From the IMG/VR virus record IMGVR_UViG_2711768101_000011: a stretch of DNA of 16,377 bases. One strand, 5' to 3'. The DNA is from a virus (Duplodnaviria; Heunggongvirae; Uroviricota; Caudoviricetes). The notes under the pieces were generated by a model that worked only from the letters and a program-made list of their open reading frames with translations, had not been told where the DNA came from and searched no databases. Positions 2,216-12,870 of the stretch are shown piece after piece (the first letter of the stretch is position 1; each line of letters begins with the position of its first letter). A program made the position numbers and the translations under genes.

Positions 2216-2418
2216 ATTTTCACTTTTTTAAATCCAACGACAGACGGCTGGCATTTAAGTATTGTGAAATATTATCAAATGTAATCATCATTGATTTACA
2301 AAAGATACATTTTGCCCCGAAAGGATTCATGTCAGAAACATCAAAAGATGATGTTCTATACTGGGAACCATGACAACACGGGCATCTAAAGTGAATATGG
2401 TTTGTAATATTGTCTACC

Positions 2419-2631
2419 TCAAAGCGCCACTACATGAACAGCGGCAGGACCTTTAGGTCCGTTCTCAATACCAAATTCAACTTCCTGATTCTCAGTTAAT
2501 GTTTTGAAATCGTTGCTCTGAATTGCTGAGAAATGGACAAACACATCTTTGCTGCCATCTTTCGGCGTGATGAAACCAAAACCTTTTTCAGGGTTAAACC
2601 ATTTCACTAAACCAGTCATTTTGTTAGACAT
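2419..2631 (-). CDS. cspI: CspA-family cold shock protein (70 aa)
   Basis: [38 protein letters not shown]... carries RNP1/RNP2-type cold-shock domain motifs; AAGG Shine-Dalgarno; long AT-rich leader typical of csp genes; cspI versus cspB assignment is from context. Confidence 0.85.
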
Positions 2632-2992
2632 AATTATTACCTTTTGAAGAAATTAGCCCTTGGGCAGAATGGTCCGAAAAAAATATCAGAGAGAAAAACC
2701 AACAAGGAAATCTCAAGAGGTACAAATAATAAAATTATAACAATGACTGCTTCAGATAAATTTGTAACAAACCAGAACACCATTAACGCATGATTAACCA
2801 CCCATAGCAAGGATTACTTTTGTAAAGAAAAACACAGCAATGAAAGAATAGCTTTATTTATTAATAAAACGTGTCATTCTGATTAAGACCTTTTATCTTA
2901 CCCTTAAGATTTCAGGAATTTTGGCTCATGGAAGAGTCCTTTTTATTTAAATTTTACATTCCGCGATGTAAATGTTCCGATTTAATATTACC

Positions 2993-4016
<1,024 letters not shown>

Positions 4017-4332: not shown

Positions 4333-4548
4333 TTACTCTCTTCTCGCAACCTTACGCCTGTCTTCTTTAATCTTGAAATAAAGGTTTGTCAGATACGTCA
4401 GCATGCCAAATACCAGACTACCCAATACACCTATTGCCGCCCACTGTGAGGGCGTGACTTTATCGAGCAACTGTAAAAACCAGTAGCCAGCACTGCCTGC
4501 AGAGGTGCTGTAGGCGATGCCCGTTGTTAACTTATCCATGGATTTCAT
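4333..4548 (-). CDS. Class II holin (EssD/EssQ-like, 71 aa)
   Basis: [71 protein letters not shown]: two hydrophobic segments and charged C-terminus; GGAGGTG Shine-Dalgarno before the internal ATG of the ORF-track ORF. Confidence 0.8.
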
Positions 4549-4639
4549 AGCCTCACCTCCGCAGATAACGGATGGTGTACACGGTTTGGTTCGAAGAAGG
4601 AAAGAAGTTACATTAGCGTAAGGCCCGAACATCTATTCA

Positions 4640-4670
4640 AAAAGAAAAACGCCAGCAATTATTCTGGCGT
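4640..4670 (-). terminator. Rho-independent terminator downstream of the AraC-family gene
   Basis: On the minus strand, CGCCAG-AATAATTG-CTGGCG hairpin followed by TTTTTCTTTTT, about 70 nt after the stop at 4739. Confidence 0.5.
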
Positions 4671-4738
4671 AGCTAAAAATATCGTATAATCTTACACTTC
4701 AAAAAATAACTTTATAAAATGCCATCACATCATATCTT

Positions 4739-5154
4739 CTAAGAAAATCTTGATAAATATTGGTGCGGAGGCACACCAAAATATCCTCTAAAAACACTTA
4801 CAAAATATGATGCATTGTCATACCCGCATATTCCCGCCACCTTTCCGACAGTATGGTTACTGTAGATCAATAATCTTTGCGCCATCATCATTCGTTCTTC
4901 AAGAATTAATTTACTAAACGATATTCCTTCGTCTTTTAATTTTCTTTTTAACAAACTCTCGCTCATATATAATCTTGAAGATATATCACAAAGTCTCCAT
5001 GACGCTGAGATATCCGAGTGAATAATAGCCTTAACTTTACAACCTAAGCTATTAAGACTTCCGAACAAAAAACTTTGCACTATTTTCTCTGAAGATAAGA
5101 CAGCAAGACATGCAAGTGATATTTGATTTCTAACTACATCCACGGTTTTGCTAT
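4739..5154 (-). pseudogene. AraC-family regulator (AppY/EnvY-like), C-terminal fragment separated from its N-terminus by the IS5 insertion
   Basis: Host-derived part of ORF 4739-5320 carries the AraC-type HTH region (...GICGYDNASYFVSVFRGYFGVPPHQY); the first 55 codons of that ORF are IS sequence. Confidence 0.7.
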
Positions 5155-6350
<1,196 letters not shown>

Positions 6351-6652
6351 CTATCACAATTCAAGCATGCAACCAAGTTCTTTAACAATGAAAAATCTTC
6401 ACATTCTACTATCAAGTATGACGGATAAAACCTTCTTACAGAAAAAGGTGAGAGTGTGTAGTTTTTAAAGAAATCATTAACTGTTTTCTCCTCAACATCT
6501 ACGATCATTAGATGATCTGTATTTGACGAAAAAAGATCTTTTAAATTGTATTCAATGAGGACATCATTTCCTTTTTTAAACAAAATATCTTCTTTACCAA
6601 TTCGGACACCAAACGAGTTCAACACCAAAATGATAGAACATATGTATGGCAT
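6351..6652 (-). pseudogene. AraC-family regulator (AppY/EnvY-like), N-terminal fragment
   Basis: MPYICSIILVLNSFGVRIGKEDILFKKG... resembles the AppY N-terminus; joining this fragment to 4739-5154 after removing the IS and one CTAT copy restores one continuous frame of about 240 aa (frame arithmetic done by hand). Confidence 0.65.
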
Positions 6653-7058
6653 ATTATCCACCTGATATCATTGGGGTTACACCAGGTAAGTATAGGTGGA
6701 AAATCAATATTCGCCAGTTCAACAATAAGGAAAATCTCATTGCATCACAACTATAAAACCATGTGTTTAACTCACAAAAAACAAATCATTAAACTAATCT
6801 GTTATATTATAATAGCTGCGTGCAATAATAATATTATATGCTCTTAATATTCACTTGAAATATCTTCATATAAAAACAGATTGAATAAAATCTTTTGGGG
6901 CTGGTATGTTTACCAACATTAAATTGCATCTCAATGTTTTCTTTAGCGTGAACAGGATTTTTATACAAACTGACACTATGGGCATCATAGCGTAGTTTTT
7001 ACGATTGTAAATATCCTGCATACAGGAACTCATCACTTTCAGATGATATCGCATACAG

Positions 7059-8018
7059 TTAATTCACCATCAGTCTTAGAGCCAGTTCTTCCGGATAGGG
7101 ATCGAAGTAATTCTGTGTAAGCAAGTAATCATTAGGATACTCACCCAGATAATGCTTCAGCAGAGTCAACGGCGCAAGAAGAGGCAATGTGCCAAAGCGA
7201 TAGTTAAGTATAACCTCGCTCAACTCTTTACGCTGGCGTGTACTTAAGTAATTACTAAAATACCCCTGTATATGCATCAGCACATTCGTGTGATTTTTAC
7301 GTGATGCTGGTTTTCTGAGAATCGCCATCAGATTATCACGATACACCTCAAAGTATGATTCAAGGTCCGCCCACTCGTGTATTGCAGCCACAAATGGTCC
7401 CATATCTTTATAGCCTGCCTGGCTATGCGCCAACAACTGAAGCTTATAACGACTATGAAAAGCTAATAACTCTCTTCTTGATAATTTCTCCTTGTAAAGA
7501 TGATTGAGCTCATGCAAAGCAAAAACTCTTTCAATAAAATTCTCACGAAGCACTGGATCATGTAATCGCCCATCCTCTTCAACCGGTAGCCAGGAAAACT
7601 TTTCCATCAAAGTGCTCGTAAATAGTCCCACCCCATCTTTACGACCTCGATTACCATTTTCATCATAGACACGCACGCGCTCCATGCCACAGCTGGGAGA
7701 TTTAGCACAAACCACAAACCCCGATACATCCTTTAATTTGTCCATATAAGAACGACTAAACTCTGTCATTCTCTCTGTCACATCCTCATTCTGGTCGTGG
7801 CTGAAACACATCCGTATATTTCCTTGCTTCGAGCGCACAAGTCGTAGAGCAGGACGCGGAACTGGCAGCCCTATAGCCATTTCCGGACATACTGGTCTGA
7901 ATGTTACCCATTCCACTAATTTGTCCATTAAAAAGTCATCTCTTTTGTGACCACCATCAAAACGAACAGCAGAACCGCCCAAACAACCGCTGATCCCAAT
8001 CACAGGTTTTTTTATCAT
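7059..8018 (-). CDS. DUF523-DUF1722 fusion protein (TudS / YbgA-like putative Fe-S thiouracil desulfidase family)
   Basis: 319 aa; N-terminal Cys-containing motifs (GISGCLGG, RPVCPE, KSPSCG) consistent with DUF523; C-terminal half YbgA/DUF1722-like; strong AAGGGGGAGGAA Shine-Dalgarno before the ATG. Confidence 0.7.
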   Translation of the reverse strand: MIKKPVIGISGCLGGSAVRFDGGHKRDDFLMDKLVEWVTFRPVCPEMAIGLPVPRPALRLVRSKQGNIRMCFSHDQNEDVTERMTEFSRSYMDKLKDVSGFVVCAKSPSCGMERVRVYDENGNRGRKDGVGLFTSTLMEKFSWLPVEEDGRLHDPVLRENFIERVFALHELNHLYKEKLSRRELLAFHSRYKLQLLAHSQAGYKDMGPFVAAIHEWADLESYFEVYRDNLMAILRKPASRKNHTNVLMHIQGYFSNYLSTRQRKELSEVILNYRFGTLPLLAPLTLLKHYLGEYPNDYLLTQNYFDPYPEELALRLMVN

Positions 8019-8210
8019 TTCCTCCCCCTTGACTAATTCATTAACACATAAACTTTGTAGTGCACTGACTAAATTGCCTTTCTGGCTTCATCACTGACAA
8101 TTTTTCTGTTATTGACTATTCCTAATATAGTAGGAAAGTTCTTTAAGTGATCGGTCGTACTCATCTATCTTTCATACTTACTCTCAACTATCAAAAGTAC
8201 AGGATTTATT

Positions 8211-8735
8211 ATGAAGTTATGGCCTGTGTTGACTGGCATTGCACTCTCTTTCACTCTTATAGCATGTAAGGCCCCGACACCACCTAAAGGTGTGCAGCCG
8301 ATTACAAATTTTGACGCCAACCGCTACCTCGGAAAATGGTATGAAATAGCTCGCCTCGAGAACTGGTTCGAACGTGGTCTGGAACAGGTCAGCGCTACTT
8401 ATGAAAAACGGAACGACGGAGGGATTCGCGTACTTAACCGTGGATACGATCCAACGAAAAACAAATGGAGCGAGAGCGAAGGTAAAGCATACTTTACTGG
8501 AGATACTAAAACTGCAGCGTTGAAAGTTTCGTTTTTTGGCCCCTTCTATGGTGGCTATAATGTAATCAAGCTGGATGATGAGTATAAGTATGCTCTTGTC
8601 AGTGGTCCGAACAGAGAATACCTATGGATTCTGGCAAGGACCCAAACTATTCCAGATAATGTAAAAGCAGACTATGTGCGTACCGCTCAAAAGTTGGGAT
8701 TCAATGTCAATGAACTATTATGGGTTAAACAATAA
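8211..8735 (+). CDS. blc: Outer-membrane lipocalin, Blc homologue
   Basis: Lipoprotein signal peptide with lipobox LIAC; lipocalin motifs (NFDANRYLGKWYEIARLENWFERG, KVSFFGPFYGGYNVIKLD) closely match Blc but are clearly diverged from the chromosomal copy as I remember it. Confidence 0.8.
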   Translation: MKLWPVLTGIALSFTLIACKAPTPPKGVQPITNFDANRYLGKWYEIARLENWFERGLEQVSATYEKRNDGGIRVLNRGYDPTKNKWSESEGKAYFTGDTKTAALKVSFFGPFYGGYNVIKLDDEYKYALVSGPNREYLWILARTQTIPDNVKADYVRTAQKLGFNVNELLWVKQ

Positions 8736-8763
8736 AATCCCCACCCGAAATGATACTTATTAG

Positions 8764-8790
8764 AAAAAAACCAGCCTTTGGGGAGGCTGG
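8764..8790 (-). terminator. tR'-like rho-independent terminator downstream of Q (also at the 3' end of blc on the other strand)
   Basis: CCAGCCT-loop-AGGCTGG hairpin; on the minus strand it is followed by TTTTTTT. Confidence 0.55.
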
Positions 8791-8794
8791 CTAA

Positions 8795-8890
8795 ATCAGG
8801 AAACAAGCTGTTATATGATAATAACTACGTTGCGATTCCAACATTTAAAATGTTAGACTAATGAAAATCAGACAGCAACTTTTCCTTTAA
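8795..8890 (-). promoter_or_regulatory. Probable late promoter (PR'-like) and qut region between Q and the terminator
   Basis: Inferred from lambdoid architecture (Q gene, short leader, terminator); only weak sigma70-like hexamers seen (e.g. TTGCTG-17-TAACAT); exact promoter not resolved. Confidence 0.3.
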
Positions 8891-9268
8891 TTATTTCGAA
8901 CAATCAGCATCCATCTCCAATCGGAGATCCAACACCATCAGCATGCCCTCCACTACGCCCTCAGCTTTCTGGAGCATCCTGCCAACCCAACAATCAGATC
9001 GCCCATGCTTACGTGCAAGCGCCATAAAAGTCATGCCGCCGACATAATAGTCCACCAATAAATCATGTAAATCGCTGTTGTTTTTTTTCAGGCGAGCCAT
9101 ACATTCACAAATGATCATCGCGTCATCGTCACAGCATTGCGGACGAGATCTTACTTTTGAAGGAATTAATCCCTTAAAACCGGCGGCAATGGACGACCAG
9201 GTCACATCTTCATGATTATTAGCCGCCCATGCCCCCCAACGCTCAAGAACCATCTGAATATCACGCAT
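8891..9268 (-). CDS. Antitermination protein Q (QuuD / phage 82-21 type)
   Basis: [34 protein letters not shown]...[33 protein letters not shown] matches QuuD closely from memory; GGAG Shine-Dalgarno before ATG at 9268; the ORF-track start at 9283 is a TTG. Confidence 0.8.
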
Positions 9269-9285
9269 CAACTTACTCCACAAAA

Positions 9286-10335
9286 TTAGGCCAGCACACC
9301 AATTGCCAGCGCGCGATCGATAAATCGAAAAATCAGCTCCAGTTGGGAGCCATACTTCTCTTCAAATGCCACGGTATCCGTATGCAACTCGTCGTGATGC
9401 TTTCTGCACAAAGGCAACACAAAGAGATCATGTGCTTTGGTTCCCATTCCGCCCTGCCCGTGACCAATCAGATGATGCGGATCGTCGGCTGGCATACCGC
9501 AGCAAGCACACGGCTGTGTCTTAACCCAGCGTGTGTATTTCTCCTTAACCCAACGGTGACGTTTAGGCAGCTTCATGAAAGATTCCGGAGACTCTGGATC
9601 AACGGTGATGCTTACCACCGTCTTTTCCTGTGATGGGTTTTGTTGCTGGTGGGCGTGAGGCAACGGTGCAAGATTTTTTGTGCGCTGTTTCAATATGCTG
9701 GTGGCGGTCTGCTCTCCCGGTACGATGTCGCTTTCGCGGTACACCGCGCAGTTTTTTTCCGCTGGTAATCCCAGCGAGCGACGTAATACCGCTTCCGGTA
9801 GCGCGTCCGCCACCTGATTGCGGACCGCCCACCAGGATAATTCAGCCAGAGATAATTCACGCTCCTGCGTACCGCTTATTGCGTGACCGATGACGTCAAT
9901 CATCCATGCTGACAGGTTTTGATGAGCAAGTTGCTCGAGTGATTCGGATGTCTGGTCACGCAGCTGGTTGTCGCAGTGCCAGCACAACACCATTGCGCCG
10001 GTACCATAACGGTGAATAACGGTTTCGCTGTGATGATAATCGCCGTGTGGCCACTGGCAGGATTTAATATGGCGCAACAGCCAGTCAGACAATGCACCAG
10101 CACCACCAGCAGCACGAATTACCCGTGCGTTACTGAAAAACGGCAGCAATGTTTTGTCTTCCACCAGCGGCTGGCGAACGGCAGGAACGACCCCGGACGG
10201 CAGATTACGCATGCTTTTCGGTTCCGGCTCCACCAGTACCCGGGTATTGTGGAATACCGGCATGGATTCACGGCCCGGCTTAACGACCACCAGCCCGAGT
10301 TCCGGTACCAGAACAGGTCGAAGTAATATCCGCAC
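9286..10335 (-). CDS. ydfU: YdfU-like prophage protein (DUF968, HNH-like C-terminus)
   Basis: 349 aa; C-terminal [21 protein letters not shown]...[10 protein letters not shown] motif; GTG start with GGAGG Shine-Dalgarno; resembles Qin YdfU. Confidence 0.8.
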
Positions 10336-11149: not shown

Positions 11150-11305
11150 TTACTCCTCAGGTTCGTAAGCTGTGAAGACAGCGACCTCCGTCTGGTCGGT
11201 TCGGATTCGTACCTCGCAGAGGTCTTTCCTCGTTACCAGTGCCGTCACTATGACGGTTAAACAGATGACGATCAGGGCGATTAACATCGCCTTTTGCTGC
11301 TTCAT
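11150..11305 (-). CDS. hokD: Hok-family type I toxin (HokD/RelF-like, 51 aa)
   Basis: MKQQKAMLIALIVICLTVIVTALVTRKDLCEVRIRTDQTEVAVFTAYEPEE; AAGGAG Shine-Dalgarno before the internal ATG; the ORF-track ORF extends in frame upstream to 11362. Confidence 0.8.
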   Translation of the reverse strand: MKQQKAMLIALIVICLTVIVTALVTRKDLCEVRIRTDQTEVAVFTAYEPEE

Positions 11306-11480
11306 AGCCTGCTTCTCCTTGCCTTTCGGCACGTAAGAGGCTAACCTACATGTGTCTAGCATGAAATTGGCCTCAGATTAATGTTAAGCGTCTTGCAGGA
11401 CGCGTAATGTTAACTGGGGCTTTTCTCTATCTGCCGTTGATGTTCATGCCCGAGGCAGATAGCCTCAAGCACCCGCAGCC
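11306..11480 (-). promoter_or_regulatory. hok mRNA leader region with structured elements (possible antisense/sok-equivalent region)
   Basis: Perfect 9-bp inverted repeat CTATCTGCC (11427-11435) / GGCAGATAG (11454-11462); hok loci are known to be controlled through leader structure and an antisense RNA; no sok promoter was positively identified. Confidence 0.3.
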
Positions 11481-11917: not shown

Positions 11918-12601
11918 TCATTCCTGGCCTTCTTTACCGTAGTGGAGTTGACCAATTTTGATTAGAGGGCGTCCCTGAGATTTGCGGTGTAGATTGGTAT
12001 CGCGCAGTGAATACACGCAGCCACAATATTCCTGCTGATAGAATTGTTCGCGCTTGCTGATTTCAATCATGCGGGAAGAGCCGCCCTGCTTTCGCCAGTT
12101 ATAATCCCAGTACACCATGCCCGGATAATACGCGACGGCTCGCCGTCCACAGTCGTTAACCTGCTGCATATTTTTCCAGCGTGAAATGCCCAGTGAGCTA
12201 CTGATCACACTGAAACCATTTTCAGCGGCATACAGCGCAGTCCGCTCAAAACGCATGTCAAAACACATGGTACAACGGATCCCTCGTTCAGGCTCCCATT
12301 CCATTCCTTTGGCTCGCTCAAACCAGTTGTCTGTGTCGTAATCAGCATCAATAAATGGCACGCCGTGTTGTTTAGCAAAGCGAATATTCTCATCCTTACG
12401 AATTAAATACTCTTTCTGAGGATGAATGTTCGGGTTGTAGAAAAAGATGGTGTAGTCGATTCCCGAGGCCTGAAGCGCCTCCATCACTTCACCGGAACAT
12501 GGAGCACAGCAAGAGTGCAGTAATAGTTTTTTTGCCCCGTTTGGGAGCTCCAATTTGGGGCGTTTGAAATCAGCAACAGTCATAAATGTGTTTATGAGGT
12601 T
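11918..12601 (-). CDS. DUF208 / QueH-like Fe-S protein (epoxyqueuosine-reductase-like)
   Basis: [13 protein letters not shown] motif near the N-terminus plus CTMC and YCGC Cys motifs, consistent with the DUF208 (QueH) family as I remember it; start uncertain (12601 or 12580), no clear Shine-Dalgarno. Confidence 0.6.
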
Positions 12602-12636: not shown

Positions 12637-12870
12637 CTATCGGAAACAGATGTCTAAATCTGGTAATGTCTGCTTTTGATGCAAAGCAGACAACCACGGC
12701 AGCGCACGAAAATCAGCGATAATGTCGGGATTAATAATCGGGTGACGTCCATCACATAGCGAATGTTCCTCTTTCCTGATATCGCTAAATATCGACCATT
12801 CGTCATTCTTATCGAACCAGAGCATGCGACTGCCACAGCACATGTCGAGAATGGTAGCCGATGTACTCAC
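12637..12870 (-). CDS. Hypothetical small Cys-rich protein (77 aa)
   Basis: GTG start overlapping the upstream stop (GTGA) with GGGAGG Shine-Dalgarno inside the upstream gene; motif [14 protein letters not shown] loosely resembles a SAM-binding motif I but the protein is too short for a methyltransferase. Confidence 0.4.

Follow-up and report, generated by a model that had tools for sequence, protein, structure and literature searches.

What are three genes of non-phage type doing between the late-gene antiterminator gene Q and the lysis genes of a lambdoid prophage? The question is raised by the viral record IMGVR_UViG_2711768101_000011 (Caudoviricetes), a stretch of 16,377 nucleotides to which we refer, at its full length, as the window. 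A previous reading made from the sequence alone had described at this place a cargo island composed of a Blc-like lipocalin, an iron-sulfur (Fe-S) protein resembling TudS and YbgA, and an AraC-type regulator, and all the features it listed were found at or near the positions given for them. The order on the minus strand is Q, a hairpin terminator, the opposite-strand lipocalin gene, the Fe-S protein gene, an AT-rich spacer, the AraC-type gene, a second terminator, and the holin, lysozyme and spanin genes. The domain E-values of Q, the lipocalin and the Fe-S protein are far beyond chance. The island is probably a composite moron cassette carrying the tRNA 4-thiouridine (s4U) desulfidase RudS, a second Blc (Blc2) captured together with rudS, and a Psr-like regulator; its expression in the lysogen would be confined by terminators, and Q would drive read-through of the cargo upon induction.

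The domain make-up of the Fe-S protein gives good support to its identification as RudS. A full 2-thiour_desulf/DUF523 profile (PF04463) covers residues 7-149, and DUF1722 (PF08349) occupies residues 192-309 of the same polypeptide; the DUF523-DUF1722 call made earlier was thus upheld by profile searches (Table 1). The fusion of these two domains defines RudS, the tRNA 4-thiouridine desulfidase (Jamontas et al. 2024, PMC11417400), in which the TudS-type [4Fe-4S] domain takes sulfur off s4U in tRNA, and DUF1722 holds the tRNA and is required for its binding (PMC11417400). The three [4Fe-4S] ligands, Cys12, Cys44 and Cys110, stand at the positions listed for RudS_vir, and the catalytic Glu and Ser are also present, the window motifs C-P-E46 and S-P-S-C110-G aligning with C43-P-E45 and S-P-S-C104-G of TudS 6Z92. 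RudS_vir is gp66 (H3V29_gp66) of Escherichia phage 1H12, and the window protein is 92% identical to it (293/319). When overexpressed in E. coli, every RudS tested, RudS_vir included, cut the tRNA s4U content 4.7- to 26-fold, whereas stand-alone TudS and E. coli YbgA had no such effect (PMC11417400). By analogy with RudS_vir, the window protein would be expected to possess tRNA s4U desulfidase activity. Hence the domains named in the sequence-only reading stand, but its thiouracil-desulfidase interpretation is superseded by RudS, of which a 92%-identical orthologue has been tested. Stand-alone TudS proteins are single-domain and approximately 150-166 amino acids long, unlike the fused protein of the window, and the score against the YbgA equivalog model NF007549 (189.1 bits) is below the cut-off of 237; the additional TudS domain and the prophage location also set the protein apart from YbgA. 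The strong Shine-Dalgarno sequence ascribed to this gene is in place, GGGGGAGG being located directly upstream of the rudS ATG.

The lipocalin exceeds the cut-off of the NCBIfam Blc subfamily model NF007786 (312.6 against 267 bits), and solved Blc structures match it at about 1e-65. Both its opposite-strand position and its lipoprotein signal had been recognized before. The N-terminus, as read from the translation, is MKLWPVLTGIALSFTLIAC19-K20, with the lipobox L-I-A-C19. According to the Lol sorting rule, lipoproteins with a residue other than Asp at position +2 are directed to the outer membrane; since Lys20 follows the lipidated cysteine, an outer-membrane location is predicted for the lipoprotein Blc2. 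The protein is a paralogue of Blc, the second copy in the same genome, as had been proposed: it is only 59% identical to the host Blc but 68-80% (mostly 76-80%) identical to the rudS-linked chromosomal lipocalins of other enterobacteria. The low identity, the lack of an ampC-blc-sugE neighbourhood and the presence of the true blc elsewhere in the genome speak against orthology to the chromosomal E. coli blc. The literature yielded nothing usable on a link of lipocalins to light-induced regulons.

The third gene is of AraC type, in agreement with the sequence-only reading, and Psr/YdeO-like. It is not intact, which that reading had not mentioned. The gene is split by an IS5 insertion sequence and is, for this reason, a pseudogene in this copy. 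The element lies in the orientation of the late operon, and comparison with the uninterrupted strain OW1E2 revealed a 4-bp target duplication, CTAT, at positions 5151-5154 and 6351-6354. The 5' fragment runs into IS5 and stops after 109 amino acids, its product lacking the DNA-binding domain. When IS5 was removed in silico, a clean open reading frame (ORF) of 237 amino acids was obtained, in which 234 of the 238 aligned positions (stop included) were the same as in the intact OW1E2 allele. As the rest of the gene is undamaged, the insertion looks recent, and it is common to only 11 complete E. coli genomes. The intact regulator has 237-243 amino acids and shares 47% identity with O157 Sakai PsrA over 160 amino acids. 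The best full-length NCBIfam model is YdeO (regulator residues 1-231 against model positions 1-229 of 253), but the score of 111 bits remains under the equivalog cut-off of 348, and by sequence the regulator can therefore be assigned to the prophage Psr/PatE/YdeO group at the family level only. PsrA, PsrB and PatE are small prophage-encoded AraC-like activators of the acid-resistance genes gadE/hdeA in enterohaemorrhagic E. coli, and they repress the LEE and, indirectly, type III secretion; YdeO, which is not prophage-borne, is counted with them among the activators of gadE/hdeA (PMC10877973). Salmonella ORF242 was rejected as a relative, being a member of the MerR family according to the literature.

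Table 1. Positions and supporting matches of the cassette and its flanking features in the window
Feature	Position	Strand	Evidence
Q, late-gene antiterminator, Q21 type	8891..9268	-	Pfam PF06530 (Phage_antitermQ) 8e-51; PGAP 'antiterminator Q family protein'
Q-blc spacer, expected site of PR' (putative)	8800..8890	-	candidate -35/-10 pairs
Intrinsic terminator after Q (tR'-like)	8762..8792	-	hairpin and T-run 8792-8769; 9-bp stem with 5 G-C pairs, then TTTTTTT
Blc-type outer-membrane lipocalin (Blc2; localization predicted), antisense to the late transcript	8211..8735	+	Lipocalin_2 (PF08212) 7.5e-43
Divergent blc-rudS intergenic region, presumed own promoters	8019..8210	.	192 bp, GC content 0.34
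rudS, tRNA 4-thiouridine desulfidase (TudS/DUF523 and DUF1722; activity by analogy)	7059..8018	-	319 amino acids; Pfam 5.8e-40 (DUF523), 9.4e-40 (DUF1722)
AT-rich non-coding spacer upstream of the regulator	6653..7058	-	406 bp, GC content 0.315; two conserved promoter-like sites
5' fragment of the Psr/YdeO-like AraC regulator (pseudogene)	6351..6652	-	PGAP 'AraC family... missing C-terminus'
IS5 (ISKpn26-like), transposase 5302-6282	5155..6350	-	DDE_Tnp_1 7.9e-36; ends GGAAGGTGCGAA.../...TTCGCACCTTCC
3' fragment of the regulator with the AraC helix-turn-helix (HTH)	4739..5150	-	HTH_18 2e-16
Intrinsic terminator between cargo and lysis genes	4649..4670	-	7-bp stem with 5 G-C pairs, then TTTTCTTTTT
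Class II holin (essQ-like), start of the lysis cassette	4333..4548	-	Phage_holin_2_1 8.9e-34; PGAP essQ

Over the 4.7 kb tested (positions 4600-9300), the window matches the E. coli YJ6 chromosome with 100% identity; there the region belongs to a Qin-like lambdoid prophage adjoining rspB. The phage genes are on the minus strand of the window, and they follow the order of integrase, immunity, replication, Q, lysis, head and tail genes. The cassette is situated at 2.52 Mb of the host genome, and the prophage around it is complete, its limits being marked by integrase and tail genes. In the composition profile of the window, a trough in the guanine-cytosine (GC) content of 0.30-0.45 extends over positions 6500-9000; the cargo has a GC content of 0.31-0.44 (43-44% in the phage blc and rudS genes), in comparison to 0.47-0.54 in the flanking Q and ydfU. 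Thus, the island shows the following hallmarks of a moron: extra genes inserted between conserved phage genes, other cargo at this position in related phages, and a deviant base composition.

Species-representative genomes were scanned for chromosomal rudS genes. The scan yielded 62 loci with 66-76% identity in other Enterobacterales (Citrobacter, Enterobacter, Leclercia, Kluyvera, Klebsiella, Pectobacterium and others), and in 41 of them a lipocalin gene was located divergently upstream of rudS. These lipocalins were only 64-69% identical to K-12 Blc, compared to 68-80% in the case of the phage lipocalin. No other gene separates the two in C. sedlakii and Citrobacter sp. JGM124; the spacer measures 187 bp in C. 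sedlakii and 192 bp in the window. In Enterobacter and Leclercia, a gene for an MlrA-like MerR regulator and a transthyretin/5-hydroxyisourate hydrolase (HIUase)-family gene lie between the lipocalin gene and rudS, both oriented with rudS. Enterobacter hormaechei (L019, positions 2660-3898) has such a four-gene locus, and similar ones occur in approximately 35 other loci. This arrangement looks like a conserved stress locus; according to the literature, Salmonella ORF319 and E. cloacae rudS are under the control of MerR-type regulators. Linkage to photolyase, as in K-12 ybgA-phr, was discarded, since no Phr homologue was found within 4 kb of rudS at any of the 62 loci.

The conservation of blc-rudS as a chromosomal unit in Enterobacter, Leclercia and some Citrobacter suggests, on grounds of synteny, that the phage probably captured the divergent pair whole and that the MerR regulator was lost. 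The regulator, on the other hand, has relatives in the slot between Q and the lysis genes of other lambdoid prophages. One is psrA (ECs_1087) of the Sakai prophage Sp4; in two further loci (L157 and L158, positions 3001-3735 in both) homologues with 60% and 50% identity stand alone between Q and the holin gene, with neither lipocalin nor RudS. As the Q proteins of these two loci belong to two other families (PF03589, lambda-type, and PF06323), Psr-like regulators appear to be a recurrent tenant of the slot across Q types. Because regulator homologues occur alone elsewhere, and because in Sakai Sp4 a CAAX protease gene occupies the position after Q, we infer that the island is composite, a Psr-type moron with the blc-rudS pair inserted between the moron and the Q terminator.

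The cassette is widespread. The blc-rudS segment matched 1153 of the 5426 complete E. coli genomes (about 21%; at least 80% of the segment was covered in 1043 of these), and the IS-free block from Q to the regulator was at least 80% covered in 848 complete E. coli genomes. It is also carried by 12 deposited E. coli phage records, including isolated lambdoid phages such as IdasGreatGrand and the Lambda_2E9/1H12 group (Jouyvirus), and 70 of the 80 IMG/VR loci have the full set of five, namely the genes for Q, the lipocalin, RudS, the regulator and the holin. Each of the cargo proteins has its own full-length PHROG family, annotated as 'unknown function'. The description of the genes as unusual cargo therefore did not hold. 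Comparison with the Lambda_2E9 lineage gave ratios of nonsynonymous to synonymous substitution rates (dN/dS) of 0.10 for the lipocalin, 0.14 for rudS and 0.22 for the regulator at dS values of 0.18-0.59, and these low ratios indicate that the cargo genes are maintained by purifying selection. Two short contigs assigned to one metagenome-assembled genome of the Saccharibacteria, Candidatus Nanosynbacter (L060 and L065, JARKOR01), also carried the cassette at 85-98% protein identity, almost certainly as a result of binning contamination.

Other insertion sequences have struck the cassette as well: IS3 in rudS of BL21, and IS3, IS1 or IS2 in or beside it elsewhere, in some cases in the holin gene. 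In the B-strain lineage, represented by E. coli BL21-AI (NZ_CP047231.1, 1559800-1561196), Q is the same and the lipocalin identical, and IS3 cuts rudS after 49 codons. This means that the standard host of the RudS assays is a natural rudS knockout which retains the phage lipocalin.

How the cargo could be transcribed was considered from the signals around it. The window Q has a single solved relative, the Q21 protein (PDB 6P18, E = 5e-9), and it is 81% identical to the Q encoded upstream of psrA in Sakai Sp4. The spacer between Q and blc is kept in two aligned cassette-bearing sister phages, and a different sequence follows Q in Sakai Sp4. Two candidates for PR' were noted, TTGCTG-17-TAACAT at 8878-8850 and TGGAGA-18-AATAAT at 8919-8890, the latter overlapping the end of Q. 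PR' may accordingly be placed in the 8800-8890 spacer, and transcription from it in the lysogen would end early, yielding a short RNA. The terminator after Q is identical in Lambda_2E9 and IdasGreatGrand. An Rfam match to a Betaproteobacteria toxic small RNA at 8762-8805 (28.6 bits against the gathering score of 50) was rejected, as it corresponds to the hairpin of this terminator.

The terminator of the regulator gene, previously placed at 4640-4670, consists of a hairpin and T-run at 4670-4649. Its location just before the holin gene is most easily understood if lysogens also transcribe the cargo without Q. The AT-rich region of about 400 bp upstream of the regulator was also confirmed, and it contains two promoter-like sites. 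The distal one, TTTACA-16-TATGAT at 7011-6984 (minus strand), begins 48 nt past the rudS stop codon, has a predicted leader of approximately 325 nt and is invariant across diverged phage copies. The proximal one, TGGCGA-16-TATACT at 6716-6689 (minus strand), is kept even in phages with only the psr gene. The sequence around both sites diverges and gains or loses 54 bp among the phage copies. Two other interpretations of this spacer were abandoned. A hairpin occluding the ribosome-binding site (CCACCU paired with AGGUGG) was given up because the folding z-scores were merely -0.8 to -1.4, the upstream arm is unconserved in the 60% and 50% regulator homologues, and the block is better explained as the TATACT -10 element; a 62-amino acid ORF at 6866-7054 has frame-breaking indels in sister phages.

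The composite cassette, which we consider the likely account of the locus, could operate as follows. In the lysogen, the two terminators would confine transcription so that the cargo is expressed from its own promoters and lysis is not switched on. RudS would then act as an 'eraser' of s4U, beyond the reach of the DUF1722-only YbgA of the host, and the likely outcome would be a decrease in s4U8 of tRNA and a shorter near-ultraviolet (near-UV) growth delay. Upon induction, Q-modified polymerase would pass both terminators and transcribe rudS and the regulator in the sense and the lipocalin gene in the antisense direction, and then the lysis genes.

Several observations weigh against this account. 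A terminator of its own and promoter-like sites upstream of the regulator are present, as expected of a moron, but nothing convincing was found for rudS or blc: a consensus scan of the blc-rudS spacer detected no site with 9/12 consensus positions and no strong promoter. The spacer is highly conserved among the phage copies, but it cannot be aligned with the chromosomal spacers of C. sedlakii or Citrobacter JGM124, and a regulatory element common to phage and chromosomal spacers was sought and not found. Given the lack of a strong promoter and the difference from the chromosomal spacers, lysogen expression of rudS and blc is putative. In addition, RudS_vir was tested by overexpression only; of the RudS variants, it showed the lowest activity on tRNA in relation to the amount of protein, and the shortest lag on 4-thiouracil (PMC11417400). 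The regulator is dead in the window, and IS2 and IS100 insertions are present elsewhere in the same prophage. Finally, none of the representative genomes was more than about 80% identical to the phage genes.

Among the alternatives, the most serious one, unlikely in our judgement but a genuine contender, is that RudS is mainly a lytic protein. Transcribed from PR' with the late genes, it would strip s4U8 so that near-UV could not crosslink tRNA, or it would remodel the tRNA pool; such crosslinking would stall late protein synthesis, and near-UV often accompanies prophage-inducing UV. This would suit the layout of the locus, where rudS is read in sense, next after Q and its terminator on that strand and preceded by no second strong terminator, and where Q, the cargo and the holin gene travel as one block; the outcome of the consensus scan for rudS points in the same direction. 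Moreover, overexpression of RudS_KT, the P. putida enzyme and the one tested in this respect, shortens the UVA growth delay (PMC11417400). However, the strong terminator after the regulator best fits Q-independent transcription, BL21 and other strains retain the cassette in defective prophages, and the homologues on chromosomes serve their hosts as stress genes controlled by MerR-type regulators. RudS may thus act in the lysogen, during the lytic cycle, or in both.

It is improbable that RudS works, as TudS does, on free thiobases or nucleotides, i.e., in the salvage or detoxification of 4-thiouracil and 4-thio-uridine monophosphate. The N-terminal domain is indeed a bona fide TudS fold with all the catalytic residues, and the short 4-thiouracil lag of the viral enzyme would be in accordance with such a role, but in the rescue of a uracil auxotroph on thiouracils no RudS supported growth like TudS, and none did so on 2-thiouracil. 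Furthermore, the lowering of tRNA s4U by all RudS variants and not by stand-alone TudS, the requirement of DUF1722 for tRNA binding, and the fused protein of 319 amino acids in place of a single-domain TudS argue for tRNA as the substrate.

We regard it as highly improbable that the cargo genes serve neither phage nor host and persist, as neutral hitch-hikers or remnants in decay, only through their linkage to Q and the lysis genes. The repeated IS hits could be taken as signs of decay, and no phenotype is known in a natural lysogen; yet the dN/dS values reported above, the retention of full-length ORFs by 70 of the 80 viral contigs and by isolated phages that are viable, and the rarity of IS5 at this site contradict it. 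That the genes are the ordinary chromosomal blc/ybgA locus is refuted, because blc adjoins ampC at 4.43 Mb (about 1.9 Mb from the prophage), the 169-amino acid DUF1722-only ybgA product is encoded next to phrB at 3.44 Mb (about 0.9 Mb away), and the identities to these chromosomal proteins are only 59% (Blc) and 49% (YbgA); the distant positions of both ordinary loci in the same genome also show that the prophage boundary was not misjudged.

The same prophage carries further genes. QueH, a non-B12 epoxyqueuosine reductase, is encoded at 11918-12583 (minus strand; PF02677, 4e-65) and is the second Fe-S enzyme acting on tRNA modification in this prophage besides RudS; a methyltransferase remnant is located next to queH at about 12685-12870. 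The host also has a chromosomal queG. Copies of QueH with at least 99% identity are present in 72 E. coli genomes and copies with 90-95% identity in approximately 1200, O157:H7 included; QueH of phage HannyBb has 99.5% amino acid identity to that of the window. Two RNA elements expected in Qin-like prophages were also detected by Rfam, each at 114 bits: the sok antisense RNA of the hokD/sok toxin-antitoxin pair (11300-11474, minus strand) and a cspA-type thermoregulator leader upstream of cspI (2392-2776, minus strand).

A broader idea, rather doubtful at present, is that the phage uses the cassette to edit tRNA modifications of its host, RudS and QueH together altering the tRNA to the advantage of the phage. 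If so, s4U8 would be erased as the late operon fires, enabling sunlight-induced prophages to translate their late genes; alternatively, a tRNA-based stress or defence response of the host would be blunted. About one-fifth of E. coli strains would then differ from K-12 in the near-UV and stringent responses owing to a prophage.

As regards the composite cassette itself, all three kinds of gene, the tested 92%-identical RudS orthologue and the presence of the cassette in deposited annotated genomes were already known. E. coli is said to be without RudS in reviews and in the founding paper, and the phage context and the prevalence in E. coli were outside the analysis of the latter (Jamontas et al. 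2024, PMC11417400). The statement is true of K-12, and of BL21 only through the IS3 truncation. Since the YbgA of E. coli itself has DUF1722 only, it is the prophage that makes about one-fifth of the strains RudS-positive. This proportion, the IS3-cut copy of BL21 and the existence of a lipocalin-RudS unit in enterobacteria appear to be new with respect to the literature searched. These points are useful yet incremental, and the cassette is real and largely ordinary. Nevertheless, the s4U level of tRNA, the near-UV growth delay and guanosine tetraphosphate (ppGpp) signalling may vary between strains for a seldom-considered reason, and the conserved pairing of blc and rudS in Enterobacteriaceae hints at a functional tie of a membrane lipocalin to tRNA de-thiolation.

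Comparison with characterized proteins places the parts of the cassette as follows. RudS of the window shares its length, its TudS and DUF1722 architecture and the three cluster cysteines with RudS_vir, from which it differs by 26 substitutions. In phage 1H12, rudS is likewise located between Q with the lipocalin gene and a gene for a 243-amino acid HTH protein upstream of the holin gene, but the backbones differ: ydfU/DUF968 precedes Q in the window and rusA-ylcG in 1H12. Residues 164-315 of the window protein are 49% identical to E. coli YbgA (b0707), with which it has DUF1722 in common; YbgA itself is without the TudS domain and is encoded beside phr. The chromosomal RudS proteins of Salmonella (ORF319/STM1389, in Salmonella pathogenicity island 2), Enterobacter, Citrobacter and Leclercia have the same length and domains. 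Chromosomal rudS is usually accompanied by a MerR/MlrA-like regulator, whereas the phage cassette has neither this regulator nor the transthyretin-like gene, and it carries the Psr-like AraC gene in their place; its GC content is lower (0.43), and the intergenic regions are unrelated.

The lipocalin agrees with E. coli Blc (b4149) in fold family, lipoprotein signal and length, but it is not linked to ampC and it groups with the rudS-linked lipocalins of other enterobacteria. With PsrA/PsrB, PatE and YdeO the regulator shares the size of about 237 amino acids, the C-terminal AraC HTH, the AT-rich composition and the location between Q and the lysis genes; it is, however, disrupted by IS5 and is not an orthologue of any of the named members. 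The general architecture of Q, PR' (presumed in the window), tR', cargo and lysis genes, with read-through of the cargo on induction, is the same as in other lambdoid phages with cargo in the slot between Q and the lysis gene S, for which we take stx of the Stx phages, nmpC of DLP12 and cspB/cspF of the K-12 Qin prophage as examples. Where those phages encode a toxin, a porin or a cold-shock protein, the slot in the window has genes for a tRNA-editing enzyme, a lipocalin and a regulator, and one of these genes is antisense to the late transcript.

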